A stretch of 64,000 nt of DNA from an uncultured Planctomycetales bacterium. GTDB taxonomy: Bacteria; Omnitrophota; Gorgyraeia; Aquiviventales; Aquiviventaceae. The DNA is taken from the NCBI GenBank assembly GCA_964373175.1, contig CAYJTP010000001.1, positions 41,654 through 105,653 on the forward strand. The letters are read 5' to 3'. The notes under the pieces were generated by a model that saw nothing but the letters and a program-made list of their open reading frames with translations, searched no databases and was not told where the DNA came from. The number at the start of each line of letters is the position of its first letter. The stretch's first letter is position 1. The translations under genes and the position numbers were made by a program. Positions 29,011 to 59,653 of the stretch are shown piece by piece.

Positions 29011-30061
29011 CGTCACCCTCCTGCAGCGCTGATTCAGCCGCAATGGCTCGCCGCACACGCCTGCCGAGCAGCTCGTCGAAGCGCTCCGGCTTCACTCCTC
29101 CATCCAAATTCCCACACCGCAGGACCGCGATGTTGTCGCGGGTCAAGACCTCTCCCGAGATGAGCTGCCGAACCGCGAAGATACTCCGGCGCGCAAACTT
29201 CCTCAACTCCGCCTCAACGGCCTGGACCGTCTTTTCACCGGATCCCAAGGCTCGTTCTCCTTCGCGGATCTTCTGAACCATCTGGTGCAATTCATGGGGC
29301 TCAAGCGCAAACGAGTGATCCGGCCCAGGCAGTGCGTTGCTTAAGGTGAAATGCTTTTCGATGAGGTCCGCCCCTAAGGCGACGGCGGACAAGGGCCCAA
29401 CAACCGGATCGCGCGAGTGGTCTGAGAATCCCACGGGGACACCAAATGCGGCTTTCATGCTCGCAACCGCCCGGAGATTCAGAGACTCCAGGGGTGCAGG
29501 ATACGCCGCCGTACAGTGCATCAAGATCAGGTCGCCGTTTCCGGTCCGTCGGAATTCCTCAACCGTGTTGGACACCTCCTCCAAGTTCGCGGCGCCCGTG
29601 GAGATGATCACCGGCTTGCCCTTCTTCGCTATATGTCGCACGAGGGGAATGTGGGTCATCTCATAGGAGGCAATCTTGAAGGCGACCACGTAGGGGTGAA
29701 GACGATCTGCCGTCTCTTCGTCGAACACAGAAGCAAGGAAGAGGATGTCTTTTTCCCGACAGTAGGCCGACAGCTCCGGCAACCATTCATAGGGCATCTG
29801 CATCTCGGCGATGATGTCATAGATGGAACGAGGATCCTTCAGGTACTCGCTGTGGCCCGCCCCTTTTGGATAGAGCGTCTCCGCACGGAACAGTTGGAAC
29901 TTCACGGCATCGGCGTTGGCAGAGGCCGCCACATCGATGAGTCGCTTGGCCTGCTGAAGACTGCCGTTATGGTTGCTGCCCGCCTCCGCGATGATGCAAC
30001 AAGGCTGCCCGTCGCCGATCCATCGACTGCCAATCCGCACCTTGGAAACCCCTGGTGTCAT
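29003..30061 (-). CDS. pseI: pseudaminic acid synthase / N-acetylneuraminate synthase family with C-terminal SAF domain (PseI-like)
   Basis: 352 aa. CCIIAEAGSNHNGSLQQAKRLID...DAVKFQ...GFSDHS plus a C-terminal SAF domain. Adjacent to the PseH/G fusion. Confidence 0.8.
   Translation of the reverse strand: MTPGVSKVRIGSRWIGDGQPCCIIAEAGSNHNGSLQQAKRLIDVAASANADAVKFQLFRAETLYPKGAGHSEYLKDPRSIYDIIAEMQMPYEWLPELSAYCREKDILFLASVFDEETADRLHPYVVAFKIASYEMTHIPLVRHIAKKGKPVIISTGAANLEEVSNTVEEFRRTGNGDLILMHCTAAYPAPLESLNLRAVASMKAAFGVPVGFSDHSRDPVVGPLSAVALGADLIEKHFTLSNALPGPDHSFALEPHELHQMVQKIREGERALGSGEKTVQAVEAELRKFARRSIFAVRQLISGEVLTRDNIAVLRCGNLDGGVKPERFDELLGRRVRRAIAAESALQEGDVA
29017..29022 (-). promoter_or_regulatory. 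Shine-Dalgarno AGGAGG for the TTG start of the PseH/PseG fusion
   Basis: Perfect AGGAGG 6 nt upstream of the in-frame TTG at 29010. Confidence 0.4.
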
Positions 30062-30095
30062 TGTGCTGCCTGCATGCCTGCTGCCAAATCGCCTC

Positions 30096-32093
30096 TTACG
30101 GTTCCCGGAATACCGGCTGCACCGGTTCTCCTTGCAACCGACTTCTCACATCGTCCGATCGAATAGCCGTGGCCAGAACCTGCAGGGCTTCCCGATACGC
30201 GCGAAGCGTCTGCTCGACATCCGCGTCGCTGTGGCTGTACGAGATATTCTGGCCTCCAGAAAACAGGATTCCCCTCTTGACGCATTCTTGTTGGAACAAA
30301 CTTTTGAGCGCCAGAGACTGTCTTTCCCTGTCGTCTGTGAAGACGATCACGGTGCGAGGCGGCAGACCGATGCACTCGGTGGTACGCTCTAAGCCCAACG
30401 CTCGTGCCAGCGCGTTGTATCCGTCCTTCAGCTTCCGTCCCTGGTTCCACAGGTGCTGGATCACGTCTTTCTCCCGAATCTCCGTAATCGTCGCCATGGC
30501 CGCAGCAAGGGACAGCGTCTCTCCTCCAAAGGTACATGAGAAGAAGACCTCGTCGAACAGCTTCATGATCTCTGCCCGACCAACCACAGCCGCCAGAGGA
30601 TAGCCGTTGGCCATGGCTTTACCAAGGCAGGTCAGATCTGGGATAACCCCAAGGAGCTCTTGCGCCCCACCTACGGCCAGACGAAACCCAGTGATCACCT
30701 CGTCAAAGATCAACACGGCACCCTCGCGGTGGGCCAGCTCCCGGACCTGTTGCAAGAAGCCCTCGAGGGGCTCCACCACGCCGACGGGCTCCATGATGAC
30801 GGCTGCCACTTGGCCAGGATGCTCGGCGAAGATGCGCTTCAAGCTGTCAAGGTTGTTGTACTCAAACGGGATCGTGAGTTCCCGGACCACCTTTGGTACA
30901 CCGTTGTTCCGACTTGTCGTGCCGATGTACCAATCCTGCCAGCCGTGGTACCCGCAGCAGGTGATCAGATCGCGTCCGGTGTAGGCACGCGCCACCCTCA
31001 CCGCTCCGGCCGTCGCGTCGGATCCGTTCTTGGCAAAGCGGACCATCTGCGCAGACGGAATGATGCGGGTGAGCATCTCGGCCAGCTCCACTTCCAAGGG
31101 ATGAGGCAAGGTGAAGGTCGTCCCGTCTTCGAGCTGACGCAGCACCGCCTTCGTGACCGACGGATAGTTGTGACCGAGAATCACTGGCCCCAGGGCCATC
31201 GGGTAATCAATGTACTCGTTCCCGTCGACGTCCCACACACGACACCCCTGGCCACGCTTCAAGAACACAGGAGATGCTCCTTGGATAAACTGCGTGGGGC
31301 CTTTGCTGAACGTCTGCGAACACGAGGGGATCAAAACGCTCGCCTTTTTCTTGAGTTCAAGGGAACGAGCGAGCCTGCGACGGTTGATCTGGGCAAGAGC
31401 GGGTTCTCGTTCCAGAAGCTGAAGGATCTCTTTGAAACCAAAGGAGAGCCCGTTCGAACTGAGTCTCGCATAGACCGAGCGGACAAACTCCAGATCAGAC
31501 GGTTCATCCACTGCCCAATGGAGATTCAGCGGGGAGAGATCGACCTCATGTTCGACATTGCGGGTGCGAAAGCGACCCGACGTGCGGAGGTACGGTGTGA
31601 CATGCTCCCGTTCCGCAGATGACCGGGCCTCCTGGTGGGCCCTCTCTAGGGCCTGAAAACTGAAGACCTCCACATCGAGACCATCGGGATAAGTATAGCG
31701 GAGCGTGTTGGTGACATAGTCGTAGCCTCCCTCACGGTACGCAGCCACAACCCGATCCAACACCTCTGGGTCGATCAGCGGACAATCCGCTGTGATGCGG
31801 GCGACCACATCGGCCTTAACCTGCTTGGCCACCTCGTACGTGCGACCCAGGACATCGTGTTCGCTACCCCGAAGACATCGAATCCCGTCCTTCCGGCAGA
31901 ACTCGACAATGGCGTCATCGATGGGCTCTGTCGAGGTCGCGACCACCACCTCGTCCACCTGCCGAGCTTGGCGGACCTGACCGACCACCCGCTTGAGCAG
32001 TGGCATTCCAGCGACGTCCATGAGGACCTTCCCGGGTAACCGGGTTGAGCCCATTCGCGCCTGGATCACGGCCACCACCCGCTCCTCCTTCAT
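30096..32093 (-). CDS. fusion of SpsF/NeuA-like cytidylyltransferase and class-III (glutamate-1-semialdehyde aminomutase-like) PLP aminotransferase
   Basis: 665 aa. N-terminus VAVIQARMGSTRLPGKVL (SpsF/CMP-sugar synthetase-like). C-terminus HNYPSV..., FDEVITGFRLAVGGAQ..., LTCLGKAMANGYPL (class III aminotransferase with PLP lysine). Confidence 0.75.
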   Translation of the reverse strand: MKEERVVAVIQARMGSTRLPGKVLMDVAGMPLLKRVVGQVRQARQVDEVVVATSTEPIDDAIVEFCRKDGIRCLRGSEHDVLGRTYEVAKQVKADVVARITADCPLIDPEVLDRVVAAYREGGYDYVTNTLRYTYPDGLDVEVFSFQALERAHQEARSSAEREHVTPYLRTSGRFRTRNVEHEVDLSPLNLHWAVDEPSDLEFVRSVYARLSSNGLSFGFKEILQLLEREPALAQINRRRLARSLELKKKASVLIPSCSQTFSKGPTQFIQGASPVFLKRGQGCRVWDVDGNEYIDYPMALGPVILGHNYPSVTKAVLRQLEDGTTFTLPHPLEVELAEMLTRIIPSAQMVRFAKNGSDATAGAVRVARAYTGRDLITCCGYHGWQDWYIGTTSRNNGVPKVVRELTIPFEYNNLDSLKRIFAEHPGQVAAVIMEPVGVVEPLEGFLQQVRELAHREGAVLIFDEVITGFRLAVGGAQELLGVIPDLTCLGKAMANGYPLAAVVGRAEIMKLFDEVFFSCTFGGETLSLAAAMATITEIREKDVIQHLWNQGRKLKDGYNALARALGLERTTECIGLPPRTVIVFTDDRERQSLALKSLFQQECVKRGILFSGGQNISYSHSDADVEQTLRAYREALQVLATAIRSDDVRSRLQGEPVQPVFREP

Positions 32094-33445
32094 CGGGGTT
32101 CCTCCACCGCAGGGTGGATCTCGGAACCGACTCTCCCGCAGTGATGATCGATAAAATCCACCAGGCCCTTGTCGCGAAACCGTTCGAGGTACGCAAGGAC
32201 CTTCTCATACGGCAGGCCGTGCTTCTGAGCGATATCAAGGACCGTCATGCGGCCGTCAAAATACCGTGGCAGACAATCCATCAGGTAGTTCCACTGTCGT
32301 TGCTCCATCTCCACCTCTGGCCGGATGGAAGGATCGGCCGTCGGGATGTACAGGTCATACTTCGGGTGACTCAGGGCCACCAAACCATCGAATTTTCGAT
32401 GCAGCCGGCTATTGGTTTCCAGGATTCTGACCAAGTCAAGCACCACGTCGACAGCCTCCTCCAAACGATGTTCCGAGATAATGCGGTCCGTATCATGGCT
32501 TGAGTGATACTCCGGAAAGGGAAAGCGAGAGAGCGAAATCGTGGGAATCTCGTACCCCGGCGCTTCCCACACGGTCTCATCGTTGCCGACGATCTTCCGA
32601 AACCGGTCAGCAAAGAAGTCAGGGTGCCGATGCCGCAGCACCTGATGCATCGCCCGGTCCAGCTCAGAGGCCCCTGTAAACGACTCTTGGAGGGCGAATC
32701 GATTGTCATTACCGAGGCACTCCAGAAAGACGGCTCCCCTGAAATGCGCCAATTCGGCCTTGGTCCGAGGCGCCAGATAGAAGACGGTCCCATGATGCTC
32801 TGGGGCAATGATGAGGCGATAGCTGTAGCGCCGCTCCGACTGGCTCTTCAGGTGTTTCATGACCTCCACACCAACGACGACCCCGGAGATGTCATCGTTG
32901 GCCTGACCCGCATGGCAATTGTGGGCGTTCAGGACGATGGTGTCCTGCGTATCTCCGGGAAGCAGGTAATCGCAGACCTTCATCGTGCCGGCCTCGTGGA
33001 CCGTCTCGAGGATCACCTCATACGTTCCTGGCTCCAGCTGATTGGACAAGGTCTGCGGCACAGAGAATCCCCAATCCTTCTGACCAACTTTGTAGTACAG
33101 GTCGCAATGATAGACCAGGGCGTCTGGCCATGTCGGATGGAAGAAGAGGTGCCGTTTCAACTCTTCTCGATCCACCGTGCCCTGAAACGGTTGTGAGTAG
33201 CCGATGACCCCAAGCGGATGCGCGAGGCCGTCATACACCACCCGACCGTGGCGACGGATCTCGGCGCGTCGGACTTCCCATTTCCACGGAATGACCCAGC
33301 CGTTATGTTCCTGACCAGACGCGTACGCATGGACCGTGAAGGGTAGCTCTTCACAGAGCAGTTCTGTACATCGGTCCAGGCCGCTGGAGACCGGAGCCAA
33401 CCGGAGAGGGTACAACGTTCGTAAGAGGTTCAGCATACCTGCCAT
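32090..33445 (-). CDS. DUF4910 / M28-aminopeptidase-like domain protein with C-terminal winged helix
   Basis: 451 aa. Central region with His/Asp/Glu-rich metal-site-like segments (AHNCHAGQANDDISGVVVG..., IAPEHHG). Architecture resembles aminopeptidase-like-domain proteins found in glycan loci. Tentative. Confidence 0.5.
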   Translation of the reverse strand: MAGMLNLLRTLYPLRLAPVSSGLDRCTELLCEELPFTVHAYASGQEHNGWVIPWKWEVRRAEIRRHGRVVYDGLAHPLGVIGYSQPFQGTVDREELKRHLFFHPTWPDALVYHCDLYYKVGQKDWGFSVPQTLSNQLEPGTYEVILETVHEAGTMKVCDYLLPGDTQDTIVLNAHNCHAGQANDDISGVVVGVEVMKHLKSQSERRYSYRLIIAPEHHGTVFYLAPRTKAELAHFRGAVFLECLGNDNRFALQESFTGASELDRAMHQVLRHRHPDFFADRFRKIVGNDETVWEAPGYEIPTISLSRFPFPEYHSSHDTDRIISEHRLEEAVDVVLDLVRILETNSRLHRKFDGLVALSHPKYDLYIPTADPSIRPEVEMEQRQWNYLMDCLPRYFDGRMTVLDIAQKHGLPYEKVLAYLERFRDKGLVDFIDHHCGRVGSEIHPAVEEPR

Positions 33446-33450: not shown

Positions 33451-34032
33451 TTAGGACGTGTCCTCGGGTCGAACCAATCCAAACAACACCTCGTCCACGT
33501 AGGGGCCGTTACAGGCATACTGCTGAGGCCGAAGCCCCTCTTGGATGAACTGGGCCTTTCGGAGCGCCTTGGCGGACCCGATGTTGGTGGCGTAGCAGCC
33601 TGCGGTCACCTTGTGGAGCCCCAGCTCACGGAAGGCGTACTCAGTCACGAGCCGAATCGCCTCCGTGGCGTACCCCTGCCCCCACGCCGATTTCTCGCCG
33701 ATCAGGAAGCCCAGGTCCGCCGTCCGGTGAGCCCAGTTGATCGGCCCCAATTTAATATTGCCGATGTGCCGATCCCCCGCCTTCAGGATGATGGCCAGGA
33801 ACAGATAGTCAGGGTTTCGCGTGATCTGGGTCACGTAGTCCTCCAACGAAGCTCGGGTGTGCTGGACAAAGCGGCATTCCAGGTATTGGGTCACCTCTTG
33901 ATCATTCATCCAGCGGCAATACGCCTCCGTCACATCAGCAGTCTGTATTGGTCGAAGAGAGATCCGCTTGCCTGCAAGGAGCGGCCGGTGAACGGCAACG
34001 GTCCCGCTCGGGTCGTTGGCGATCGTGGTCAT
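33451..34032 (-). CDS. GNAT-family N-acetyltransferase (RimL-like)
   Basis: 193 aa. HIGNIKLGPINWAHRTADLGFLIGEKSAWGQGYATEA is the RimL-like acyl-CoA-binding core. Confidence 0.75.
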   Translation of the reverse strand: MTTIANDPSGTVAVHRPLLAGKRISLRPIQTADVTEAYCRWMNDQEVTQYLECRFVQHTRASLEDYVTQITRNPDYLFLAIILKAGDRHIGNIKLGPINWAHRTADLGFLIGEKSAWGQGYATEAIRLVTEYAFRELGLHKVTAGCYATNIGSAKALRKAQFIQEGLRPQQYACNGPYVDEVLFGLVRPEDTS

Positions 34033-35063
34033 CCCGCCCCCACCGTCTTCAGGCGCAGCCCCCTCGCATCGTAGCCAGCCCTGTCCATCATGGCGGCTTC
34101 CACATACCGGCGCGGTGTGTAAAACCGCTGCCCAAGCCGCAGCTGGCTGACGAGATTCTCTCCCGCGTCGTTCAACACCGTTTTGATCACGAGGGTCCCG
34201 TCGTGGGTGGCCACTGAGACACCCTCTGGCCCCTTGCGATAGATGAGCCCAGCCTGGAATGGATGGAATGGCCCATCGTCAGCATGGGCCGTGCAGCCCT
34301 TCAGTCGAACCCGCTTGCCGTTCAAGAACGTCGCCGCACCTGCATACGGATTATCGAACGCGCAGAGGAAGGCTTCGAGATCCTTCGTCCCCCATGCCCA
34401 ATCGGCGTATCCGTGATGGGCGGTCGACAGACGAGGAAAGTAGCTGCTCGTCGCCTCGTCCAGGCGCACCCGCCTGAAGGTCGTGCCTTCACGGACTTGC
34501 TGGAGGAATTCCTCGAGAAACTGTTGGCCCTCCTCGAGGACGATCGCGACGTCATCGGCTGGAATCCTTGCGGACTCAGGAAGGACATACTCCTGGGCCT
34601 TAATCACGTCGCCAACGTCAAGTTCTTCCTCGATCAGCTGGATGTAACAGCCCCACTGTCGGTCCCGGCGCATGATCCGCCAGGAGTGGTGCGCCCCGCC
34701 CCGGTAACGCGGCAAGGGGATGGGATGAACGTTGACGAACCGCTCTGCCAACAACTCCAGGAGTGGTTTCTTAAACACCCACGCTGGACCCATCGCCACC
34801 CCCAGGGTCGTTGGATGGATGTGTCGCGGAACCCGTTCATCGTCGTTGATCTCCTCCGAGCTGAAGCAGGGCAGATCCGCACGACGAAGCGCCTCTGCCA
34901 AGGTCAGTCCCTCTGCTGTCACAGGCTCCTCAGCGTGTCGCGGAGCGGTAAAAATGGTGGCGGCAAATCCCAGGGACTCAAGCTTGGGCGCTATTCGGGC
35001 AAGCAGCGCTCCACCCCCAATGATGAGGAGATGGTCGATCGGACCAAAACAGATCGTTGGCAT
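34029..35063 (-). CDS. formyltransferase family (Fmt/ArnA-N-terminal-like sugar N-formyltransferase candidate)
   Basis: 344 aa. Formyl_trans_N-like core (FVNVHPIPLPRYRGGAHHSW, with the SLLP-equivalent catalytic region) plus a C-terminal domain. Confidence 0.7.
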   Translation of the reverse strand: MPTICFGPIDHLLIIGGGALLARIAPKLESLGFAATIFTAPRHAEEPVTAEGLTLAEALRRADLPCFSSEEINDDERVPRHIHPTTLGVAMGPAWVFKKPLLELLAERFVNVHPIPLPRYRGGAHHSWRIMRRDRQWGCYIQLIEEELDVGDVIKAQEYVLPESARIPADDVAIVLEEGQQFLEEFLQQVREGTTFRRVRLDEATSSYFPRLSTAHHGYADWAWGTKDLEAFLCAFDNPYAGAATFLNGKRVRLKGCTAHADDGPFHPFQAGLIYRKGPEGVSVATHDGTLVIKTVLNDAGENLVSQLRLGQRFYTPRRYVEAAMMDRAGYDARGLRLKTVGAG

Positions 35064-35069: not shown

Positions 35070-35900
35070 CTAGGAGACCCGAACGTTGAGTCCCGCCTGT
35101 TTCATGTAGGCCCTGGCTTTAATGACGCTCTGGTCCGTAAAGTGGAAAATGGAGGCCGCCGCAACGGCGGAGGCTCCTCCGAGCGTCACCGCTTCCACGA
35201 GATGCTGGAGCGTTCCTGCCCCACCAGCCACAATGACCGGGCAGTCCACGGCATCGGCGACGGCTCGAATCAGCCTTAGGTCATAGCCCAATCCGGTTCC
35301 GTCCCGATCGATGGACGTCAAAAAGATCTCCCCTGCCCCTGCCTCGAGCGCAGTCCGAGTCCAGCAGACCGGTTCGAGACCTGTCGGCTCCTTGCCCCCC
35401 TGTATGAACACCTCGTAACGATCCGGCACAACCTGCTTCGCATCGATGGCCACGACCACACTTTGGCTGCCGAAACGGACCGCGCAGTCCCCGATCAGCT
35501 TGGGGTTTAAGACGGCCGCCGTGTTGATGGCAACTTTATCCGCTCCTGCCTCAAGCAACCTTCGAGCATCCTCAACCGTTCTCACGCCGCCGCCAACGGT
35601 CAGCGGCATGAAGCAGGCCTCGGCCGCCTTCGCAACGACTTCGAGAAGGGTGGAACGATTTTCCTGGGTCGCTGTAATGTCCAGGAATACCAACTCATCG
35701 GCCCCTTGCGCGTCGTAGACCTTTGCAGCGGTGACTGGGTGCCCCACGTCCCGAAAATTATCGAACCGGATGCCCTTGACGCAGCGACCGTTCGACACGA
35801 GCAATGTCGGAATGAGGCGAATCTTCAGCGGGCACACGCACTCCGCCGTCGACCCTTCGACGCGGGCCACGGCCTCCCCGGCCCGCCTGGAGAACAGCAT
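35070..35900 (-). CDS. HisF-like imidazole-glycerol-phosphate-synthase cyclase subunit homolog (WbuY-like)
   Basis: [22 protein letters not shown]...DELVFLDI...AINTAAV matches HisF. Start uncertain: ATG at 35900 chosen, GTG at 35840 or ATG at 35996 possible. The track ORF (to 36086) carries a Pro/Arg-rich extension. Confidence 0.7.
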
Positions 35901-36004
35901 GCCGGGGCGGGCTGGCCGTGGGCCCTTGCTCAGGATGTCACCCCGAATGGGCGAAGAACAGGTGCCACCCCGCATTGGCGGGGTGGGGCTCCACATCTGG
36001 AGTG

Positions 36005-36646
36005 CTAAGTCGGCCATGTGACAAAGTTGCGCAGAAGTTTCAGACCCGCCATCTGGCTTTTCTCTGGATGGAATTGCACAGCCCACAGATTCCGGTCATG
36101 GAGGGCGACAGCGACCGGTCCACCATAGTTGCAGGTTGCGATCACGAACTCCGGGCGGTCACTCACAAAGTGATAACTGTGTGCGAAGTACAGGACCGGT
36201 TCCGGGCCTAAACCCTGAAAGAGCCAACTCTCGGTTGTGGGGTAGACCGTATTCCATCCCATATGCGGGACACGCAACTGTCGGCTGTTATTCAACGGTC
36301 TAACCCGGCCGGGGAGCCAGCGGAGCCCCTCATGAAAGCCGTGTTCGTATCCCTCATGGGCAAGGATCTGCATGCCCAGGCAGATTCCAAGAAACGGTTT
36401 TCCCTTTTGTCGAACCTCCTCATCCAGGACATCAATCCACCCCCCAGACTTCAAGTTCTTCATGCATTCCCCAAACGCCCCGACCCCGGGTAGCACAATC
36501 CGATCGGCTGCTTCGAGATCCTCAGGCCGGTCCATCACGGTGACCTGCGCACCCACGGTCTCCAAGGCCTTTGCGACAGAACGGAGGTTCCCGGTCCCGG
36601 CATTAATGACCGCCACACTGACCCTGGAAGATGAGCGGGGATTCAT
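36005..36646 (-). CDS. HisH-like class-I glutamine amidotransferase subunit homolog (WbuX-like)
   Basis: [14 protein letters not shown], catalytic GICLGMQ (Cys), and HFHPEKS (His/Glu). Start at the ATG overlapping the upstream TGA (ATGA). Confidence 0.8.
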
Positions 36647-37803
36647 TCGCGCGGCTGAGTCCGATCCCAAAGCGGTTGGTCCCAAAGAGCCGTTCCCCGC
36701 TCCGCGTTGGATGGATCGTGCTGGTAGGGGGCGACCGCATGGCCTAAGGCGATCTTCATGAACTCCTCTTCCGTAATCCCGACGGCCTTTAAGAAAAGAT
36801 CGAGGCTGGCCGGACGTTTGCCGTCGTACGCCGCCTCAAGCCGGAGCGCTTCCTCCCGTGAGGTCATCTTCCCTTCCCGCAGGTCTTTACTCACCAGATG
36901 GGCCGTCCGTCCAAACCCGCGCTTGATGAACTTCAGATAATCCCGCACCCCCTGCATGAAGCACTCGATCTTTTCATACCCGTATTCCGGCGGGACCCCC
37001 TCCACCTGTTCTTCCTTCCATCCAAGCTCTCGTTTGATGATCTCAGCTTGCGCCTTGGTCTCCCAGGGGATGTAGCTCCCCAAACAGATGGAGCGGTAAT
37101 TCAGCGCTCGTAATTCCTCGATCGGCGGGTACGCAAAGGGCTCCAGGTCCCGCATCGTGATCCCTTTCCCCAGCATCCCCAGCATATCCTCGGCGGTGAT
37201 TCCCAGGTTGACGAACCGGTTAAAGCGACGCTCGTCTACTTCTTCCTCTTCCTGATACGTGTAGTAGCTCGTATACTCAGCGCTGGGCTCTCCCCAGATG
37301 ACCAAGGGGACTTTGAACTTCACCGCAATGTGCATCGGATAGGCGAAGATCCCGGTATGGCAGTGCCAGCAGAAGTCCCCCTTGCGGATCAGCGCCTCCA
37401 GCATGAGCCGTCGGACAACCTGCCAGTTTGGACGAAACTTCAAGTAGTCGACCCCCAACGTCTTCATGGTCCGCTCAGTATTCGCCAGCACGGTTGGACG
37501 CATAAAGCCGTGATCGAAGGTGACCACCAGCGGCTTGAGATGGTAGCGCACCACCACGGTGTAGAGGGTAAACGTGCTGTCCTTGCCACCAGAAAACGGC
37601 ACAAGACAGTCATAAGGGTGCTTGTCGCGGTAGTGATCGAGGATCGCGATCAGCTCCTTCTCCTTCTGCTGCCAATCGATGTGCTTCTGTTTGTACTCAA
37701 TCTGGCGGCAGACGTTGCAAACGCCCTCCCCATCAAACACGATCGTCTCCTGGGTTTCCGGCAGCACACAACGGCTGCACCGTTTGAGCTCGGTCATCGG
37801 CAT
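36643..37803 (-). CDS. N-acetyl sugar amidotransferase, PP-loop ATP pyrophosphatase family (PseA/WbuZ-like)
   Basis: 386 aa. N-terminal Cys4 (CSRCVLP...CNVC), then PP-loop LVPFSGGKDST. This family pairs with HisH/HisF-like proteins for acetamidino-sugar formation. Confidence 0.8.
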   Translation of the reverse strand: MPMTELKRCSRCVLPETQETIVFDGEGVCNVCRQIEYKQKHIDWQQKEKELIAILDHYRDKHPYDCLVPFSGGKDSTFTLYTVVVRYHLKPLVVTFDHGFMRPTVLANTERTMKTLGVDYLKFRPNWQVVRRLMLEALIRKGDFCWHCHTGIFAYPMHIAVKFKVPLVIWGEPSAEYTSYYTYQEEEEVDERRFNRFVNLGITAEDMLGMLGKGITMRDLEPFAYPPIEELRALNYRSICLGSYIPWETKAQAEIIKRELGWKEEQVEGVPPEYGYEKIECFMQGVRDYLKFIKRGFGRTAHLVSKDLREGKMTSREEALRLEAAYDGKRPASLDLFLKAVGITEEEFMKIALGHAVAPYQHDPSNAERGTALWDQPLWDRTQPRE

Positions 37804-38834
37804 ACCTCAGATGGAGCCACGCTGGGAACAGCTCCGGCTGCGCAGGCCACTTCCCGGCCAAGACGGGCTGACGCGTGGGCCGCGACGACCACTTCAAGGA
37901 CCCGAAGGGCGTCCTCTCCAGACACGCGGGGGACGGCTTCTCCCTTGAGACAGCTCAGGAATTCCTTGAGCTCCTCCAGATACAGCACGTTTGGATCGAG
38001 AGGGGTCGGGATCGTCTCCCAGCAGCGCGTGTCGGCCCGGTACCATCGCAGGCCCTCCAGATAGTCCCAGATGAGCGTGCCCTCTGTGCCGATGACTTTG
38101 CAGGTCCGCGTGTAGGCCCGTTGGGCGCAGTCCAGGTGGAGGCTCGCGCGCCAGCCATTGCTCAACGACAGCCAGAGCAGCGCAAGATCCTCCGCATCCA
38201 TTTGTAAATCGCTCAGATGTGCGGTCAGCGCGGTGACCGTTTCCACCTCGCCCGCAAGCCAGCGCACATAATCAATTTCATGGGAGGCGTCGAGCAGTAT
38301 GCCCCCTCCCAATGCCGCGTGAGCCGTATAACTTTCCTCGTAGTGTTGAGCGGGACGCCAGTCAGGAAGGTACTGGCCGAACTCGGCCTGGATGAACAAC
38401 ACGCGACCCACCCGGCCTTCATCGACCCAAGCCTTGAGGCGCTGGAGACCAGGATGGAACCGGAGCTGATACCCGACCTGAATCACCCGAGAACTCAGGC
38501 GGGCCATGGCGCACAGATCGGCCACGCCCTCGAGCGTGTGAGAGATCGGCTTTTCAATGAACACGTGAGCCCCATGCTGGATGGCTTGCCGAGCAGGCTC
38601 CACGTGAAGAGCAGGAGGCGTGCAAATCAACACCCCTTGGGGCAGACGATCGAACCCCTCCGCGATGCTGCAACAAGGCACGACGCCCAACTCACGAACC
38701 ACCCCGTTGAGCCGATCCGGCAGAGGATCATAGGCAAACAATTCCTTGATCCCTAAGGTCCGGAGGTTGAGAAGATGTCGCCGGCCGATGGAGCCGCATC
38801 CTAAGACGAAGAGTCGTGGGGGGCTATTGACCAT
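37794..38834 (-). CDS. Gfo/Idh/MocA-family oxidoreductase
   Basis: RLFVLGCGSIGRRHL N-terminus, EKPIS motif. Start ATG at 38834 (alternative at 38840). The track ORF is longer. Confidence 0.8.
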   Translation of the reverse strand: MVNSPPRLFVLGCGSIGRRHLLNLRTLGIKELFAYDPLPDRLNGVVRELGVVPCCSIAEGFDRLPQGVLICTPPALHVEPARQAIQHGAHVFIEKPISHTLEGVADLCAMARLSSRVIQVGYQLRFHPGLQRLKAWVDEGRVGRVLFIQAEFGQYLPDWRPAQHYEESYTAHAALGGGILLDASHEIDYVRWLAGEVETVTALTAHLSDLQMDAEDLALLWLSLSNGWRASLHLDCAQRAYTRTCKVIGTEGTLIWDYLEGLRWYRADTRCWETIPTPLDPNVLYLEELKEFLSCLKGEAVPRVSGEDALRVLEVVVAAHASARLGREVACAAGAVPSVAPSEVCR

Positions 38835-40023
38835 ACGCATCCAGCACCTTGGTGACCGCTTCGATGCAATCTTCCACGTCCGCATCAGTCATGCTGTGAA
38901 ACAGCGGCAAGCTGATCAGGCGACGATAGGCCTCCTCGGCCACGGGGTATTCCCCTCCTCGGTAACCAAACCGGTGCCGATAGTACGGGTGCAGATGGAC
39001 CGGGATGTAGTGGACATTGACCCCCAGGCCTTCGGCCCGCAGCGCTTTGAAGATCTCCGCCCTCTCCACGTGCAGCTTCGACAAGTCCAGTTGAACAGGG
39101 TACAGATGCCACGCCGGTGTGGCATCGGGTCGCACCACCGGTGGCATCACCCCTCCCAGGTCCTTGAAGACCCTGGTATAGCGCATCGCAATCTGCTGAC
39201 GGCGCTCCAGATTTCGATCAAGCCGCTTGAGTTGGGATAACCCCAGCGCACATCCGATATCTGAGAGGCGATAGTTATACCCCAACGCGACCATCTCATA
39301 GTACCAGTCACCGCCCGCTTCACGCTCGTGGACGTCGTGCTCGATCCCCTGGTTGCGGAAGATGCGCAGTTGACGGGCAAATTCCGCGTTGTCCGTCGTC
39401 ACCATGCCCCCCTCTCCCGTCGTGATATGCTTCACGGGATGAAAACTGAAGACGGTCATATGGCTGACCGACCCGACCCGGCGACCTCGAAGCTCTGCGC
39501 CCAGCGCATGACAGGCATCCTCAATCACGACCAGTCCCTGTCGTTCGGCCAACGCGACGAGCGCATCGAGATCGGCCGGATGCCCCGCGTAGTCCACCGG
39601 GAGGATGGCTTTTGTCCTGGCTGTGACCGCCTGCGCGACACGGTTCGGATCAAGGTTCAACGTATCGGGGCAGACGTCGCAGAACACGGGCAACGCCCCT
39701 TGGTACAACAGGGCATTGGCCGTCGCGCAGAACGTCAGCGGGGTGGTCACCCCTTCATCCCCAGGCCCCAACCCAGCCGCAAAGACCGCTCCATGAAGCG
39801 CGGCAGTGCCGGAAGAGAAGGCCACAGCGTAACGACTCCCGACACGAGCCGCGAGGGCCGCTTCGAACTGCTCGACGACCGGACCGGTCGTCAACCAGTC
39901 CGACCGCAGGACTTCCAGGACCCCCTGGAGATCCTCCTCGAGCACCTCATGGTGCCCATACGGCAACCGTCTCTGGCGGACCGGTTGTCCCCCGTCGACC
40001 GCCAAGGTAGGTAGCGCCTTCAT
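38824..40023 (-). CDS. pseC: DegT-family aminotransferase (PseC-like UDP-4-amino-4,6-dideoxy-N-acetyl-beta-L-altrosamine transaminase)
   Basis: VLEEDLQGVLEVLRSDWLTTGP..., and FSFHPVKHITTGEGG (PLP lysine). Immediately downstream of the PseB-like gene. ATG at 40023; the preceding GTG at 40026 is used by the track. Confidence 0.8.
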   Translation of the reverse strand: MKALPTLAVDGGQPVRQRRLPYGHHEVLEEDLQGVLEVLRSDWLTTGPVVEQFEAALAARVGSRYAVAFSSGTAALHGAVFAAGLGPGDEGVTTPLTFCATANALLYQGALPVFCDVCPDTLNLDPNRVAQAVTARTKAILPVDYAGHPADLDALVALAERQGLVVIEDACHALGAELRGRRVGSVSHMTVFSFHPVKHITTGEGGMVTTDNAEFARQLRIFRNQGIEHDVHEREAGGDWYYEMVALGYNYRLSDIGCALGLSQLKRLDRNLERRQQIAMRYTRVFKDLGGVMPPVVRPDATPAWHLYPVQLDLSKLHVERAEIFKALRAEGLGVNVHYIPVHLHPYYRHRFGYRGGEYPVAEEAYRRLISLPLFHSMTDADVEDCIEAVTKVLDAYGQ

Positions 40024-40033
40024 CACCGGGGAC

Positions 40034-41014
40034 TCACCTCGAAAACTGCCCGATCATCTGATGCAACCGCTCCCCGCTCAGCCAATCCGTATTGGTGTTG
40101 CTAGCGTAGCGGGTGCCGGGCTTCATCGGCCGGCCTCCCGACCAGCTCTGTCCGTCCCACCAAGGATGAGCGGGCTGGATGATGTACATATCATCAAATT
40201 CGAGGGCCTGGGCGACTTCGTCCTCGGAAATGAGCACCTCATGGAGTTTCTCTCCTGGCCGGATGCCAATGAGCTCCACTTGAGCGTCCGGTGCAATGGC
40301 TTTCGCTAGGTCCATGATCGCCATGCTGGGAATTTTTGGCACAAACACCTCCCCGCCCTGCATCTGCTGGACACAGCGAATCACAAAGTGTACCCCTTGC
40401 TCGAGCGTGATCCAAAAGCGTGTCATCCGAGAGTCGGTAATCGGCAGCCGGCCGTTCTCGCGTTTGCCCAGGAACAGGGGGATCACGCTGCCCCGGCTGC
40501 CCACGACATTGCCATAGCGCACACAACTAAAACGCGGGCCCTCCGCACCGGAGTACGCATTGCTGTGAATACAGAGCTTCTCCGCACACAGTTTTGTCGC
40601 GCCATACAGGTTGACCGGATTGACCGCTTTATCAGAGCTGACCAGCATGACCCTCTTGACCCCCTGATCGATCGCGGCCTCCACGACGTTCCGCGAGCCC
40701 ATCACATTGGTCATGATCGCTTCGATGGGATTGTACTCACAGGTTGGGATCTGCTTTAAGGCTGCGGCATGCACGACGATCTCGACACCGTTGAAGGCCC
40801 GTTCCAGTCGTTCCCGGTCCCTGACATCCCCGATGAAATACCGAAGACAGGGATGGTCAAAGCCGGATTGCCGCATCTCATGCTGTTTGAGCTCATCCCG
40901 ACTGAAGACGATGAGTTTCTTGGGCTGATAATCCCGCAGGACGACTTCTACGAATTTCCGCCCAAACGATCCAGTGCCACCTGTGACGAGAATCGTTCGA
41001 CCGTTAAGCTCCAT
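40034..41014 (-). CDS. pseB: UDP-N-acetylglucosamine 4,6-dehydratase (inverting), PseB/FlaA1/CapD-like
   Basis: NGRTILVTGGTGSFGRKFVE..., YGATKLCAEKL. Short SDR-like protein of the Polysacc_synt_2 type. ATG at 41014 gives the typical 7-residue lead-in before ILVTGG; ATG at 41035 is also possible. Confidence 0.85.
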   Translation of the reverse strand: MELNGRTILVTGGTGSFGRKFVEVVLRDYQPKKLIVFSRDELKQHEMRQSGFDHPCLRYFIGDVRDRERLERAFNGVEIVVHAAALKQIPTCEYNPIEAIMTNVMGSRNVVEAAIDQGVKRVMLVSSDKAVNPVNLYGATKLCAEKLCIHSNAYSGAEGPRFSCVRYGNVVGSRGSVIPLFLGKRENGRLPITDSRMTRFWITLEQGVHFVIRCVQQMQGGEVFVPKIPSMAIMDLAKAIAPDAQVELIGIRPGEKLHEVLISEDEVAQALEFDDMYIIQPAHPWWDGQSWSGGRPMKPGTRYASNTNTDWLSGERLHQMIGQFSR

Positions 41015-42323
41015 TGGACGCTCGGCTCCCTCCATCGTTTGGAATCAGTTGGACGGCCACCCTTCTGCCATCGGGATAGACCCACTCGTAAGGAACGAAG
41101 AAGGGTGCGGCGCTCCGGGCCTTGATATCCGCCTGTTCACCCCTCAAACCAAAATCGGCCAGGGGGCCCACGACATGAAATGCTGCGACCTCTTGCGATT
41201 CGAGCAAGGTACGCTTGCTGTTCGCCTGCCGAACACACATCTTCACCGTGTAGAATTGGGGGAGCAGGGGAACAGCGCGGAAACGACAACCGATCACGTC
41301 GTCCCCCTCCATGGCATTCAGAAGCTGTCCATCGAGAGTCATGTTCGCAGCAAAGATTTCACCGAATCCGCTGTTAATCGAGATCCAGACGTAGGGTTTC
41401 TCCACCCTCTGCCGCGCAAAGATGTGCACGGCAATATCGATGTCGTCTCCCGGATGAAAGATCGTCGTTGGCTGACCCTTCGCGTTCCTCAACACGACCC
41501 GCCTCACTTGGATGACTCCCAGGCCTTGGGTCGCGAGTGAACCTTCGGTGACAGCGGAAAGATACGCCGCCACCGTCTCCTCCGGGGAGCCGACGTCCCG
41601 CAGTTGTCCGCCATCCAGCCAGATCGTCCGATCACAGAGACTCTCGATGGCCCCCATGTTGTGGCTGACGAAGAGGACGGTCCGACCCTCGCTGGCGACG
41701 TTGCCCATCCTTCCCAGACACTTCTTCTGGAACGCCGCGTCTCCTACAGCCAGCACTTCATCAACCAAGAGGATCTCCGGCTCCAAGTGGGCGGCGACCG
41801 CGAAAGCCAGTCGCACGTACATGCCGCTCGAGTAATGCTTCACCGGGGTATCCAGGAACCTCTCCACCTCGGAAAAGGCGACAATCGCATCGAATTTGCG
41901 CGTGATCTCCGCTGTTCTCATCCCCAAGATGGCGCCGTTCAAGAACACGTTCTCCCGACCCGTCAATTCTGGGTGGAACCCAGTCCCCACCTCCAACAAC
42001 GACCCCACTCGCCCCCGGACCGCTGCGAATCCCTCCGTGGGTTCTGTGATGCGGGAGAGGAGTTTCAGCAACGTGGTCTTGCCTGCTCCGTTGCGGCCGA
42101 TCACCCCCATCACCTCGCCCGGCCTGACCTCGAAGGAGACATCCTTCAGGGCCCAGATCATCCCACTGTCCGAGGCTCGGGAACAGGAAGGCGATCTTCT
42201 CAAGCGTCGAAAGGGAGCGTTCCAGGCCTCCGTCAAGGTGTCTCGAAGCGTGCGGTAGCGCTCCGGCTGACCGATGCGGTAGCGCTTGCTGAGATTCTTG
42301 ACGTCGATGGCGACATGGGTCAT
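41004..42323 (-). CDS. wzt: ABC transporter ATP-binding protein Wzt (O-polysaccharide/teichoic-type exporter) with C-terminal carbohydrate-binding-like extension
   Basis: 439 aa. Walker A GRNGAGKTT, signature YSSGMYVRLAF, Walker B LLVDE, then a ~180-aa extra C-terminal beta-rich domain. Confidence 0.85.
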   Translation of the reverse strand: MTHVAIDVKNLSKRYRIGQPERYRTLRDTLTEAWNAPFRRLRRSPSCSRASDSGMIWALKDVSFEVRPGEVMGVIGRNGAGKTTLLKLLSRITEPTEGFAAVRGRVGSLLEVGTGFHPELTGRENVFLNGAILGMRTAEITRKFDAIVAFSEVERFLDTPVKHYSSGMYVRLAFAVAAHLEPEILLVDEVLAVGDAAFQKKCLGRMGNVASEGRTVLFVSHNMGAIESLCDRTIWLDGGQLRDVGSPEETVAAYLSAVTEGSLATQGLGVIQVRRVVLRNAKGQPTTIFHPGDDIDIAVHIFARQRVEKPYVWISINSGFGEIFAANMTLDGQLLNAMEGDDVIGCRFRAVPLLPQFYTVKMCVRQANSKRTLLESQEVAAFHVVGPLADFGLRGEQADIKARSAAPFFVPYEWVYPDGRRVAVQLIPNDGGSRASNGA

Positions 42324-53325: not shown

Positions 53326-53363
53326 GGGAAGGTTGTGCTCTAGGTCACTGGGTGAGATGTCTT

Positions 53364-54416: not shown

Positions 54417-54502
54417 CTGGTGTTCTTCAACCGCTCCTTACTACACGGTACGTCACGACAGGGAGGAATCACGTGCTGCAGGAGCTGGCTAAGAGAGCCA
54501 CT

Positions 54503-57167: not shown

Positions 57168-57418
57168 GAAGCCAGCGGTCCTCCTTCAGCGGCTTCGAGG
57201 AACGGCTGCTCTAGCGTCACCGTGAAGTCCAGGAACCGATGCAGGAGCTTGATGCCCCGATGCTTGTTCGAGGTGCGCTTGATGAAGCCTTTGCGTTCCA
57301 GGGCGTTGAGGCGGTCGACGGCGGATTTGTACGAGGCGATCTGGCAGTTGGCTTGGATCTCGCGGATAAAGGGGGCGCGCTGGTTCTGCGCCAGATAGCG
57401 CTGGATATACTCCAGCAC
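57164..57418 (-). CDS. small LexA-N-terminal-domain-like winged-helix DNA-binding protein (putative transcriptional regulator)
   Basis: 84 aa. [45 protein letters not shown] closely follows the LexA DNA-binding-domain consensus (..PPSIREIA..LGL.S.S.V..HL.ALE.KGYI.R). No peptidase domain. Confidence 0.55.
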
Positions 57419-57506
57419 GGCCTGTTGTTTACTGGTAAGTTTGGTCAGTCCAGGGCCTTAAGCAGAGTAAAAATTACTATCAACCGGTGAGCAATTATTA
57501 ACATAC
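57419..57506 (-). promoter_or_regulatory. AT-rich intergenic region upstream of the LexA-like gene with inverted repeat AGTAA-N3-TTACT; candidate internal promoter/operator
   Basis: The only AT-rich stretch in the cluster. Minus-strand reading contains TTGATA and TA-rich hexamers compatible with a sigma70-like promoter. Confidence 0.35.
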
Positions 57507-58655: not shown

Positions 58656-58676
58656 CGTATGGGGGTCCGAGGAGGA

Positions 58677-59630: not shown

Positions 59631-59653
59631 GCTAGCGAAGGCCTGGGACTGTG

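Follow-up and report, generated by a model that had tools for sequence, protein, structure and literature searches.

A probable acetamidino-sugar amidotransferase trio whose HisF-like barrel lacks Asp11 and whose third gene has an in-frame insertion at its start

The three genes and the start of the third

Three adjoining genes on the minus strand, at positions 35070-37803 of the window (the whole 64-kb stretch of DNA analysed here), encode an N-acetyl sugar amidotransferase, a HisH-type glutaminase and a HisF-type barrel. All three open reading frames of the HisH-like/HisF-like/PP-loop trio described in the original prediction lie where it placed them on that strand, with the following features.

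36643..37803, minus strand: N-acetyl sugar amidotransferase (NASAT; WbuX/WbpG/PseA family), 386 aa, assigned by TIGR03573
37708..37779, minus strand: Zn-binding tetracysteine motif CxxC...GxCxxC (C9, C12, C29, C32), here CSRC...GVCNVC
37576..37593, minus strand: PP-loop SGGKDS (residues 71-76), an ATP pyrophosphatase signature read from the sequence
36005..36646, minus strand: WbuY-like class-I glutamine amidotransferase of HisH type (213 aa), assigned by TIGR01855, with a start ATG that shares an ATGA with the WbuX stop
35070..36017, minus strand: WbuZ/HisF2-like protein, a HisF-type (beta/alpha)8 barrel that lacks Asp11 of the cyclase; 315 aa in its long form, assigned by family scores and alignments

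The PP-loop protein was rightly taken for a TIGR03573-type amidotransferase: it scores 349.8 bits against a cut-off of 203.2 and covers model positions 2-342 of 344, and a score so far above the cut-off argues against its being unrelated to that family. Homologues at 65-93% identity carry the source name 'N-acetyl sugar amidotransferase', and the sole PDB relative is the Legionella NASAT 8WEX, a distant one (108 bits, E 4e-30). Residues C9, C12, C29 and C32 are invariant across 21 homologues, as are S71, G72, G73, K74, D75 and S76 of the PP-loop, and both groups correspond to features that the crystal structure of the Legionella NASAT served to define; there the tetracysteine motif is given as CXXCXn[GN]XCXXC, its Zn binding is shown and SGGXDS is named as a family feature (PMC10607449). 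By analogy, the protein most likely converts a sugar N-acetyl to an N-acetimidoyl group in an ATP-dependent manner.

The HisH-like protein (maximal ORF 36005..36685) scores 221.5 bits with TIGR01855, for which the cut-off is 105.4; the profile libraries used hold no WbuY-specific model. Its start is likely the ATG at 36646, within the ATGA overlap with the WbuX stop, and NCBI and Logan both have an entry for exactly this 213-aa protein. The catalytic triad is intact (Cys89, 36380-36382; His193, 36068-36070; Glu195, 36062-36064), shows no variation across 63 sequences and matches that of the PDB HisH chains 4gud, 1ka9 and 1jvn, with which the protein aligns. These three PDB sequences cluster apart from 60 context-defined sequences, a separation that is thinly sampled. 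Besides the ATGA overlap, the hisH-like stop overlaps the ATG of the HisF-like long form by 13 nt, and such overlapping coding regions are consistent with co-expression of the trio.

The HisF-like gene was described as having an ambiguous start, with either a 104-nt gap or a Pro/Arg-rich extension, and both parts of this description hold. The gap is exact if translation starts at ATG 35900, the hisH-like stop being at 36005-36007, and the extension is real, since no stop interrupts the frame as far as ATG 36017 and GTG 36086 (maximal ORF 35070..36086). Both arise because the gene carries a 141-nt insertion relative to its closest relative, the metagenome locus L001. Two features are relevant here.

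35854..35994, minus strand: 141-nt in-frame insertion of 47 codons in the HisF-like gene, towards its 5' end, 73% GC and with two strong hairpins
35835..35837, minus strand: GTG alternative start giving a barrel of canonical length (255 aa), proposed from homologue lengths and a GGAG 3 nt upstream

Neither L001, which encodes a HisF-like protein of 95% identity, nor a second related locus, L002, has the insertion; an identical copy is present in a contig of an independent assembly. The insertion is a recent, lineage-specific and in-frame event. No further copies were found in the window or in 91 related loci, no match was found in JGI metagenomes and none reached the Rfam threshold. It folds with a predicted energy of -84.4 kcal/mol (z = -2.25).

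The insertion has one of two roles: it encodes 47 disordered residues in the N-terminal part of the protein, or it is a spacer upstream of GTG 35837. We lean slightly towards translation from the conserved ATG 36017, which would place the insertion within a 62-residue N-terminal extension. The ATG that overlaps the hisH-like stop by 13 nt also opens the frame in L001 and L002 (extensions of 15 and 21 residues respectively), the canonical HisF-like start position carries no start codon in L002, more distant relatives have a MADL or VADL N-terminus with short extensions, and the exact product on record in NCBI and Logan is the 315-aa form. The length of the insertion is a multiple of three and its HisF-like frame has no stop, each of the other two frames having one; at 73% GC, however, a stop-free frame would be preserved by chance with a probability of about 0.15 (1/3 for length times about 0.45 for no stop, estimated from composition). 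Also against translation, the GC2 of the insertion (0.67-0.72) is unlike that of neighbouring genes (about 0.43), and in an AF2 model of the 315-aa form residues 63-315 form a confident barrel and residues 1-62 are predicted to be unstructured. GTG 35837, with its GGAG 3 nt upstream, corresponds to the canonical N-terminus of the family, most homologues being 253 aa long and beginning MLKxRLIP; a start there leaves 167 nt after the hisH-like stop. A long tail could moreover interfere with HisH binding, as the HisF N-terminus sits at the HisH interface, which is established from the 1GPW complex. The insertion might impair the HisF-like subunit.

The neighbourhood and the likely substrate

The trio is flanked on both sides by genes of nonulosonic acid synthesis, which occupy a block at 24469..33445 on its downstream side, and a second set of sugar genes lies further off.

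40034..41035, minus strand: PseB (TIGR03589, 489.3 bits against 407.75)
38824..40026, minus strand: PseC (TIGR03588, 466.4 bits against 423.5)
37794..38885, minus strand: Gfo/Idh/MocA oxidoreductase (Pfam GFO_IDH_MocA domains), between PseC and the amidotransferase
34029..35063, minus strand: formyltransferase-like gene (Pfam Formyl_trans_N, Formyl_trans_C), directly after the trio
33451..34032, minus strand: GNAT N-acetyltransferase (Pfam Acetyltransf_3), after the formyltransferase-like gene
32090..33445, minus strand: DUF4910, in the nonulosonic-acid block
30096..32093, minus strand: cytidylyltransferase/class-III aminotransferase fusion, in the same block
29003..30061, minus strand: NeuB-type synthase (PseI 302.9 against 340.25, NeuB 344.8 against 399.65, both below cut-off)
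27472..29058, minus strand: GNAT-PseG fusion (C-terminal PseG part, TIGR03590, 163.7 against 153.55)
26033..27487, minus strand: TIGR04396 surface carbohydrate protein, in the same block
25203..26036, minus strand: xylose-isomerase-like TIM-barrel protein, in the same block
24469..25254, minus strand: PseF-like cytidylyltransferase, in the same block, below the PseF cut-off
53364..61021: WbpA/B/E/D-like block (nucleotide-sugar 6-dehydrogenase, UDP-GlcNAc 3-dehydrogenase-like Gfo/Idh/MocA protein, DegT aminotransferase, hexapeptide acetyltransferase)

PseB and PseC belong at the start of the pseudaminic acid pathway, as its first and second enzymes. Together with PseG they score above their curated equivalog cut-offs; the PseH model (31.5 against 93.1) and the PseF model (137.4 and 81.5 against 205.7) stay below theirs. 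As the PseH, PseI and PseF homologues are present but divergent, the nonulosonic acid may be Pse-related rather than canonical Pse. The neighbours PseB, PseC, GNAT, NeuB and PseG thus point to an acetamidino pseudaminic-acid derivative as the likely product, and the Wzm/Wzt ABC export genes and KdtA-like transferase of the same locus to a lipid-linked surface polysaccharide.

This setting recurs in related metagenome loci. The order amidotransferase, hisH-like, hisF-like was found in 49 of the 61 judgeable loci with a related amidotransferase, which supports the predicted association of the trio with acetamidino formation; the amidotransferase stands without hisH- or hisF-like neighbours in seven. 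Among 37 loci of at least 9 kb that carry close WbuX relatives, neighbours include the cytidylyltransferase/aminotransferase (33), GNAT (28), NeuB (19), PseC (17), PseB (14) and PseG (14), so that this amidotransferase clade travels with nonulosonic-acid genes, chiefly the first two of these. The Gfo/Idh/MocA oxidoreductase holds the equivalent position in L001 and has a homologue in 11 of the 37, and the formyltransferase-like gene is followed by GNAT in L001 and L002 as in the window. A natural NASAT-GNAT fusion, whose C-terminal half shares 51% identity with the GNAT protein, ties acetylation to amidation.

It is quite unlikely that the trio, while still acetamidino-forming, acts instead on a 2,3-diacetamido-2,3-dideoxy-hexuronic acid made by the WbpA/B/E/D-like block. 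That block could supply a different di-N-acetylated substrate, and the best-documented NASAT substrates are of this type (WbpG of P. aeruginosa O5, MMP1081 of M. maripaludis). It lies, however, at least 15 kb from the trio, which itself sits between PseC and the GNAT, NeuB and PseG genes; no WbpA/B/E/D-like homologue was found in any of the 37 large loci, where nonulosonic-acid genes are common, and in L001 and L002 the trio is kept inside a Pse-type block.

The HisF-like barrel and its lost Asp11

Family models alone place the third protein ambiguously. It scores 244 bits with Pfam His_biosynth and passes the HisF model TIGR00735 (303 bits, cut-off 294.55), but narrowly misses the WbuZ model TIGR03572 (291.2, cut-off 299.7) and stays below NF038364, the model for AglZ/HisF2 family acetamidino modification proteins (255.3, cut-off 310); the latter two appear to have been trained on other subclades. 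Automatic NCBIfam annotation would therefore name the protein 'HisF', a name that its close Leu-type relatives do carry at NCBI. Its identity to three reference HisF proteins (T. maritima, T. thermophilus and the reconstructed HisF-LUCA) is 52-60%. Mutagenesis of HisF has established that Asp11 and Asp130 (T. maritima numbering) are both essential, and the first of these is replaced.

35799..35801, minus strand: CTC codon, giving Leu where HisF has its catalytic Asp11, from alignment to HisF structures and T. maritima HisF

The T. maritima reference sequence was verified against PDB 2wjz. The ammonia-gate residues R5, E46, K99 and E167 are kept, as are D98-K99, D130 and both Gly-rich phosphate loops. 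In an alignment of 123 sequences (the listed homologues, the window protein and the three reference HisF, with one truncated hit set aside), the Asp11 position is Leu in 113 and Asp in 10. A neighbour-joining tree of this set, the only tree method used and with sampling biased towards best hits, joins the ten Asp-bearing HisF in one monophyletic group and places the window protein among the 113 of Leu type. One Leu-type hit is located behind a NASAT and a GATase gene in a NeuB cluster; the Asp-type control, a true HisF, lies in a hisB-hisH-hisA-hisF-hisE operon. In 48 relatives defined by context the Asp11 position is Leu (35) or Gln (13), the gate residues are invariant in 47-48, and Asp130 and both glycine-rich phosphate-binding loops are invariant throughout, so that the old cyclase site differs only at Asp11. 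Across the related metagenome loci that position is Leu in 40, Gln in 12 and Met in one, and never Asp.

It is thus highly improbable that the HisH- and HisF-like proteins are a genuine imidazole glycerol phosphate synthase that stands beside the PP-loop gene by chance: both pass their NCBIfam equivalog cut-offs, the barrel is 52-63% identical to real HisF and it retains D130 and the phosphate-binding loops, but the catalytic Asp11 is Leu, the protein falls in a clade apart from Asp-bearing HisF, no hisA intervenes and no other his gene was found within the 64-kb window, and the three-gene order recurs in related loci without Asp11 ever being present. To judge by its sequence, the window protein is, as had been proposed, a HisF paralogue and not a histidine enzyme. 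The environmental clade of paralogues to which it belongs is large; members are 60-69% identical to the window protein, always have Leu in place of Asp11, show few other differences from true HisF and are routinely mislabelled as histidine-biosynthesis enzymes.

Proposed reaction and comparison with known systems

With its family memberships, intact motifs, lost Asp11 and conserved gene order and neighbourhood, the trio is probably (about 0.8) a glutamine-dependent amidine synthase that converts a sugar N-acetyl (acetamido) to an N-acetimidoyl (acetamidino) group, most likely on a Pse-type substrate. The HisH-like subunit would hydrolyse glutamine through Cys89-His193-Glu195, and the ammonia would travel down the channel at the centre of the HisF-like barrel, in which the four gate residues are kept and the cyclase Asp11 is lost. 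NASAT/WbuX would activate the carbonyl of the acetamido group with ATP, the activated form probably being an O-adenylyl imidate, and release AMP and PPi; ammonia would then displace the activating group to give the amidine. The substrate would be an intermediate or the CMP-activated form of the pseudaminic-acid-type nonulosonic acid made by the flanking PseB/PseC/GNAT/NeuB/PseG proteins, and the product a 5- or 7-acetamidino Pse derivative, possibly with N-formyl or N-acetyl at the other nitrogen, to be built into a surface glycan and exported by the neighbouring Wzm/Wzt ABC transporter. Acetamidino groups put positive charge on surface sugars and alter antigenicity, phage recognition and host interaction. 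The chemistry, channelling, complex formation and exact substrate we infer from genetics elsewhere and from analogy with PP-loop amidotransferases and imidazole glycerol phosphate synthase; no in vitro reconstitution of any enzyme of such a trio was found in the searchable literature, so the adenylation and channelling steps are argued by analogy.

A more speculative and rather doubtful proposal is that the barrel is more than a passive ammonia pipe, forming part of a substrate-gated, tunnel-coupled amidine synthase. The invariance of Asp130 and the phosphate-binding loops in the 48 relatives suggests that it may still bind a phosphorylated ligand. This may be the nucleotide-sugar substrate, or an activator of the glutaminase comparable to PRFAR in imidazole glycerol phosphate synthase. 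If so, barrel and PP-loop enzyme would share a substrate site. A lesser point is that 47 disordered residues inserted exactly where glutaminase and barrel meet would be tolerated in this lineage.

The role of such trios in acetamidino formation is genetically established, and this one is an ordinary fresh example of a familiar type of enzyme set that adds little new and will not surprise the specialist; the exception is the 141-nt in-frame insertion opening the third gene. Imidazole glycerol phosphate synthase itself shares with the window pair the folds, glutaminase triad, gate residues, D98-K99 and D130, but differs in that Asp11 is Leu in the window, hisA and a his operon are missing there, and the partner is a PP-loop enzyme and not the PRFAR cyclase reaction. 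By family models, the E. coli O145 WbuX/WbuY/WbuZ and P. aeruginosa O5 WbpG/HisH2/HisF2 systems combine the same three families in one operon, with the same proposed N-acetyl to N-acetimidoyl chemistry, in making O-antigen L-FucNAm and ManNAc3NAmA. The window pathway in contrast leads to a Pse-type nonulosonic acid and not to FucNAc or ManNAc3NAcA, and its HisF-like protein falls just under the WbuZ and just over the HisF cut-off.

In C. jejuni, hisH- and hisF-like genes presumably adjoin pseA. Campylobacter PseA (Cj1316c) and PtmG/LegA likewise serve Am modification of a Pse or Leg nonulosonic acid and are encoded inside the biosynthesis locus; pseA and ptmG appear to act at the CMP-sugar stage (PMC5378307), and Campylobacter proteins are among the NASAT homologues aligned in the structure paper (PMC10607449). 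Flagellin is modified there, whereas the Wzm/Wzt and KdtA-like genes of the window indicate a lipid-linked surface polysaccharide.

A parallel in gene order is the O-antigen cluster of non-Sg1 L. pneumophila (Sg6/Sg12), which nearly matches the window and shares the PP-loop and Zn tetracysteine motif. In L. pneumophila Sg6 this cluster encodes CapD, DegT, an oxidoreductase, an LPS protein, HisH2, HisF4, an acetyltransferase, a cytidylyltransferase, a class-III aminotransferase, PseG and NeuB (PMC3694923). A homopolymer of 5-acetamidino-7-acetamido nonulosonic acid is present in the LPS of non-1 serogroups according to work that is cited in PMC3694923, and we infer its link to the Sg6 cluster. 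The window differs in having the formyltransferase-like gene and DUF4910 in addition, in fusing the cytidylyltransferase with the aminotransferase and GNAT with PseG, and in a WbuX that the solved NASAT 8WEX matches only distantly.

In M. maripaludis the proteins MMP1081-1083 (AglX/Y/Z) belong to the same three families, although this archaeal system acts on a diacetamido mannuronic acid and the window HisF-like protein is below the NF038364 cut-off of 310. Deletion of the NASAT homologue MMP1081 abolishes the acetamidino group of the N-glycan (PMC2952790), and no visible effect of deleting MMP1082, the HisH homologue, was seen in preliminary data cited there, which suggests that glutamine-derived ammonia may be dispensable. 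In Sphingomonas, transposon hits in the WbuX, HisF2 and HisH genes give the same class of colony phenotype (PMC11340318).

The three genes and their products

The interval 35070..37803 carries three consecutive minus-strand ORFs with overlapping coding regions, and the original prediction of a HisH-like, a HisF-like and a PP-loop amidotransferase gene was right in both coordinates and gene content, matches being found to WbuX, HisH and HisF models.

Genes of the trio (scores in bits, followed by the curated model cut-off where given)
36643..37803, minus strand: N-acetyl sugar amidotransferase (WbuX), 386 aa; NCBIfam TIGR03573, 349.8 vs 203.2
36005..36685, minus strand: HisH-like ORF; TIGR01855, 221.5 vs 105.4; Pfam GATase
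35070..36086, minus strand: HisF-like ORF; Pfam His_biosynth, 244; matches to three NCBIfam models

The amidotransferase is a member of TIGR03573, as had been supposed, and a Pfam search matched no domain in it. Its SGGKDS motif (residues 71-76) and the four cysteines of C9xxC12...GxC29xxC32 show no variation when the protein is aligned with 20 homologues of 65-93% identity, and those homologues that carry a name in their source are called N-acetyl sugar amidotransferase. The only relative in the PDB is the Legionella enzyme 8WEX (E 4e-30), the subject of the sole structural study, in which the PP-loop and tetracysteine define the family, zinc was shown to be bound at the tetracysteine site and the ATP-to-AMP+PPi chemistry was deduced from the PP-loop (PMC10607449).

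The best start for the HisH-like gene is ATG 36646, which forms an ATGA overlap with the amidotransferase stop; the resulting 213-aa product has an identical entry in NCBI and in Logan. It aligns over its full length with solved HisH chains, and Cys89 (the nucleophile), His193 and Glu195 are invariant in 60 context-defined relatives and three PDB HisH proteins. In a comparison with true HisH, one of the checks proposed with the prediction, the three PDB HisH proteins cluster away from the context-defined set, a separation that carries little weight with a sample of three. The database protein P0119, an apparent HisH-HisF fusion considered as Rosetta-stone evidence, was rejected, its HisH part aligning over 126 residues only and then appearing frameshifted.

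The HisF-like barrel and the proposed chemistry

The core of the HisF-like protein is 52-60% identical to the HisF proteins of T. maritima (reference sequence checked against PDB 2wjz) and T. thermophilus and to a reconstructed ancestral HisF. In T. maritima numbering it keeps the ammonia-gate residues R5, E46, K99 and E167, together with K19, D51, N103/T104, D130, D176/G177, G202/G203 and A224/S225; Leu takes the place of the catalytic Asp11 (codon 35799-35801). We compared it with the best 120 database homologues and the three reference HisF proteins, a set of 123 sequences after one truncated match was put aside, in which the Asp11 position is Leu in 113 and Asp in 10 (seven homologues and the three references). 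In the phylogeny proposed for HisF, here a neighbour-joining tree of these sequences, the Asp group is monophyletic and the window protein falls outside it, among the Leu group; V17C, E34T, G230T and E236K also separate the groups. Two context controls were as expected: the Asp-type P0118, 63% identical to the window protein, lies in a hisB-hisH-(GNAT)-hisA-hisF-hisE cluster, and the Leu-type P0004, which is 68% identical and which NCBI calls 'HisF', belongs to a NeuB cluster in a Rokubacteria assembly, where it is preceded by an amidotransferase and a GATase. The barrel is thus best read, on its sequence, as a HisF paralogue and not as HisF. A scan of genome contigs with peptide patterns from unconserved parts of the HisF-like core gave four distant matches, none of them relevant.

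There is an annotation pitfall here that is worth keeping in mind. The window protein passes the HisF model TIGR00735 (303 vs 294.55) and narrowly fails the WbuZ model TIGR03572 (291.2 vs 299.7), and would therefore be wrongly named HisF; it also scores below the cut-off of the AglZ/HisF2 model NF038364 (255.3 vs 310). The name 'imidazole glycerol phosphate synthase subunit HisF' is carried in NCBI by the Leu-type homologues P0004, P0061 and P0079 and at locus L088, and such misnamed paralogues adjoin an amidotransferase wherever the context was checked. P0076 is the only Leu-type homologue named WbuZ.

The three genes form a conserved module. Of 80 metagenome loci recovered with a profile built from amidotransferase homologues, 61 include enough DNA to judge, and in 49 of these the amidotransferase gene is followed on the same strand by the HisH-like and then the HisF-like gene; both partners are otherwise arranged in four, HisH only is present in one and neither in seven. 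The Asp11 position of 53 HisF-like neighbours of amidotransferases is Leu in 40, Gln in 12, Met in one and Asp in none. Among the 48 that are full length, the four gate residues are conserved in 47-48, and no variation at all is seen at Asp130 or in the two glycine-rich phosphate-binding loops. The Gln-type proteins form a second subclade, whose identity to the window protein is no more than 40-49% (loci L031, L033, L034, L041, L046, L047, L049, L070, L071, L074, L076 and L080). The system is of a known kind, and the window trio is a new environmental example of it.

The role originally proposed for the trio, formation of acetamidino sugars, is supported by the motifs, the loss of Asp11, the conserved gene order and the nonulosonic-acid neighbourhood. 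That the module would make acetamidino groups is suggested by genetics elsewhere: deletion of MMP1081 in M. maripaludis leads to loss of the acetamidino group (PMC2952790), the Am forms of Campylobacter need pseA and ptmG, probably acting at the CMP-sugar stage (PMC5378307), and transposon insertions in all three genes of Sphingomonas belong to one phenotype class (PMC11340318). On the model of imidazole glycerol phosphate synthase and of PP-loop amidotransferases (GMP and NAD synthetases, for example), the HisH-like subunit would hydrolyse glutamine and the ammonia would pass via the HisF-like barrel to the PP-loop enzyme, which would adenylate the acetamido oxygen, displacement of AMP by ammonia then yielding the amidine. 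Our literature search found no in vitro reconstitution of the trio, and the glutaminase may be dispensable according to preliminary archaeal data cited in the M. maripaludis paper (PMC2952790).

An insertion at the start of the HisF-like gene

The closest relative is L001, a locus from a Logan assembly that is syntenic with the window and encodes a HisF-like protein 95% identical to the window's; its HisF-like gene opens with an ATG and overlaps the end of the hisH-like gene by 13 nt. The same ATG (36017) occurs in the window, as does the downstream sequence of L001, but the two are separated there by 141 additional bases (35854..35994). This insertion accounts for the start region that had been called ambiguous: the distance from the hisH-like stop to the aligned HisF-like core is -1 to 60 nt in related loci, typically about 15, and by our own count 44 nt in L001 and 185 nt in the window. 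The insert is present base for base in L091, an independent assembly of a different sequencing run, and is therefore no assembly artefact.

The insert has a GC content of 73% and two strong hairpins, including CCACCCCGC-CAAU-GCGGGGUGG; its folding energy of -84.4 kcal/mol reflects a strong fold but a modest z of -2.25 against shuffles. It comprises exactly 47 codons, stop-free in the frame of the gene and with one stop in each other frame. We rejected the notion that it is a repeat element or encodes a known RNA, there being no second copy in the window or in the 91 fetched loci, no match to the 24-nt hairpin in JGI metagenomes and nothing at threshold in Rfam (a sub-threshold match to a plant miRNA was taken as chance); the insert is a unique indel. 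A search for promoter-like sites found none, and the only two terminator-like matches, at about 35155-35170, are far from the insert and no more than are seen in shuffles.

We put the odds at slightly better than even that translation begins at ATG 36017, giving a 315-aa protein in which the insert is translated. The overlapping ATG and open frame are common to the window, L001 and L002 (the last with a HisF-like protein 79% identical), and L002 lacks a start codon at the canonical position; distant relatives also open with MADL or VADL and short extensions. The reading frame is kept across the insert, although by our own estimate a stop-free frame would be preserved by chance with a probability of about 0.15, and the 315-aa protein is the form on record. 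Against this, GTG 35837 would give a 255-aa protein with the canonical family N-terminus and has GGAG 3 nt upstream, and the N-terminus of HisF lies at the HisH interface, which we counted towards that start. The insert moreover has a GC2 of 0.67-0.72, unlike coding sequence, as compared with roughly 0.43 in neighbouring genes, and AlphaFold2 models residues 1-62 of the longer form with pLDDT below 50 and without secondary structure, residues 63-315 being a confident barrel. The barrel is intact under both starts. The 104-nt gap originally described does exist, between the hisH-like stop at 36005 and ATG 35900, but that codon ranks below ATG 36017 and GTG 35837 because it is without a Shine-Dalgarno-like sequence, lies in a hairpin loop and does not give the form on record.

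The surrounding operon and the likely sugar

The trio lies within a tightly packed single-strand operon transcribed from high to low coordinates, with Wzm/Wzt export genes and a KdtA-like transferase directly upstream.

Other genes of the operon (scores as for the trio)
40034..41035, minus strand: PseB; 489 vs 408
38824..40026, minus strand: PseC; 466 vs 424
37794..38885, minus strand: Gfo/Idh/MocA oxidoreductase; Pfam
34029..35063, minus strand: formyltransferase-like; Pfam
33451..34032, minus strand: GNAT; Pfam
32090..33445, minus strand: DUF4910; Pfam
30096..32093, minus strand: cytidylyltransferase/class-III aminotransferase; Pfam, NCBIfam
29003..30061, minus strand: NeuB-type synthase; below cut-offs
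27472..29058, minus strand: GNAT-PseG fusion; PseG 163.7 vs 153.55
26033..27487, minus strand: TIGR04396 surface carbohydrate protein; 244 vs 125
25203..26036, minus strand: xylose-isomerase-like TIM barrel; Pfam
24469..25254, minus strand: PseF-like cytidylyltransferase; below cut-off

Every score to the PseH, PseI and PseF models is under the cut-off, and thus the product may be a relative of Pse and not the canonical sugar. The formyltransferase-like gene adjoining the trio hints at a possible N-formyl group on the same sugar; although it matches its models weakly (E 1e-18 to Fmt), it retains the region with the N-x-H and D-x-G-D motifs of Fmt/ArnA-type enzymes (NVHPIPLPRYRGG ... LDVGDVI).

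The clade of this amidotransferase is strongly associated with nonulosonic-acid genes. Across the 37 loci with a close relative that span 9 kb or more, the neighbours include GNAT in 28, NeuB in 19, PseC in 17, and PseB and PseG in 14 each; the most constant is the cytidylyltransferase/class-III aminotransferase (glutamate-1-semialdehyde-aminomutase-like; PRK06209, 462 bits), present in 33. We know of no assigned role for this protein in nonulosonic-acid modification. Its two parts are separate genes in the Legionella Sg6 cluster, and the gene order of the L. pneumophila Sg6/Sg12 O-antigen cluster is nearly that of the window operon (PMC3694923); a report among the references of that paper describes non-1 serogroup LPS with a homopolymer of 5-acetamidino-7-acetamido nonulosonic acid. 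The homologue P0235, a 591-aa amidotransferase with a C-terminal GNAT 51% identical to that at 33451..34032, fits acetylation followed by amidation; this fusion is found on a single 12,526-nt Logan contig and may be a frameshift artefact.

The trio could instead act on a 2,3-diacetamido sugar acid, the classical WbpG-type substrate, supplied by a block at 53364..61021 that encodes a nucleotide-sugar dehydrogenase, two Gfo/Idh/MocA proteins, a DegT aminotransferase and a hexapeptide acetyltransferase and resembles the WbpA/B/E/D route to 2,3-diacetamido-2,3-dideoxy-hexuronic acids. Homologues of this block, however, are present in none of the 37 large loci, in which nonulosonic-acid genes are frequent instead.

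Nearly all of the window (1-64000) is taken up by a single glycan-biosynthesis super-locus on the minus strand, with about 55 genes whose junctions are overlapping or very short. Two full NeuB-type synthase genes (29003..30061 and 21614..22510), a short stretch resembling NeuB within a GT2 protein (49695..51434) and four cytidylyltransferase domains (24469..25254, 30096..32093, 45837..46559 and 47917..49698) suggest that there are at least two pathways for ulosonic or nonulosonic acids. Adjoining that GT2 protein, inside the glycan locus, are a DAHP synthase above curated cut-offs (PRK08673, 352.6 vs 335; TIGR01361, 311 vs 268) and a shikimate-dehydrogenase-like gene (51353-53517). A second amidation enzyme, unrelated to the trio, is the AsnB-type glutamine amidotransferase at 8477-10765, which is above the asparagine synthase cut-off and has the XrtA/PEP-CTERM system amidotransferase as its best model (659 vs 817 bits); its real start is probably downstream, since the match begins at residue 114. 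One ORF at 17310-19397 combines class-I methyltransferase and APH-type phosphotransferase domains, an unusual pairing in a glycan locus. Where relatives of the Ugd protein carry a name they are Omnitrophica, a weak hint that the source may be related to Omnitrophota, and a gene for an LptD-like protein lies upstream, directly outside the window. The largest non-coding gap, 339 nt at 57168-57506 between two sugar-nucleotide genes, is a possible site for a promoter within what is otherwise a continuous operon.
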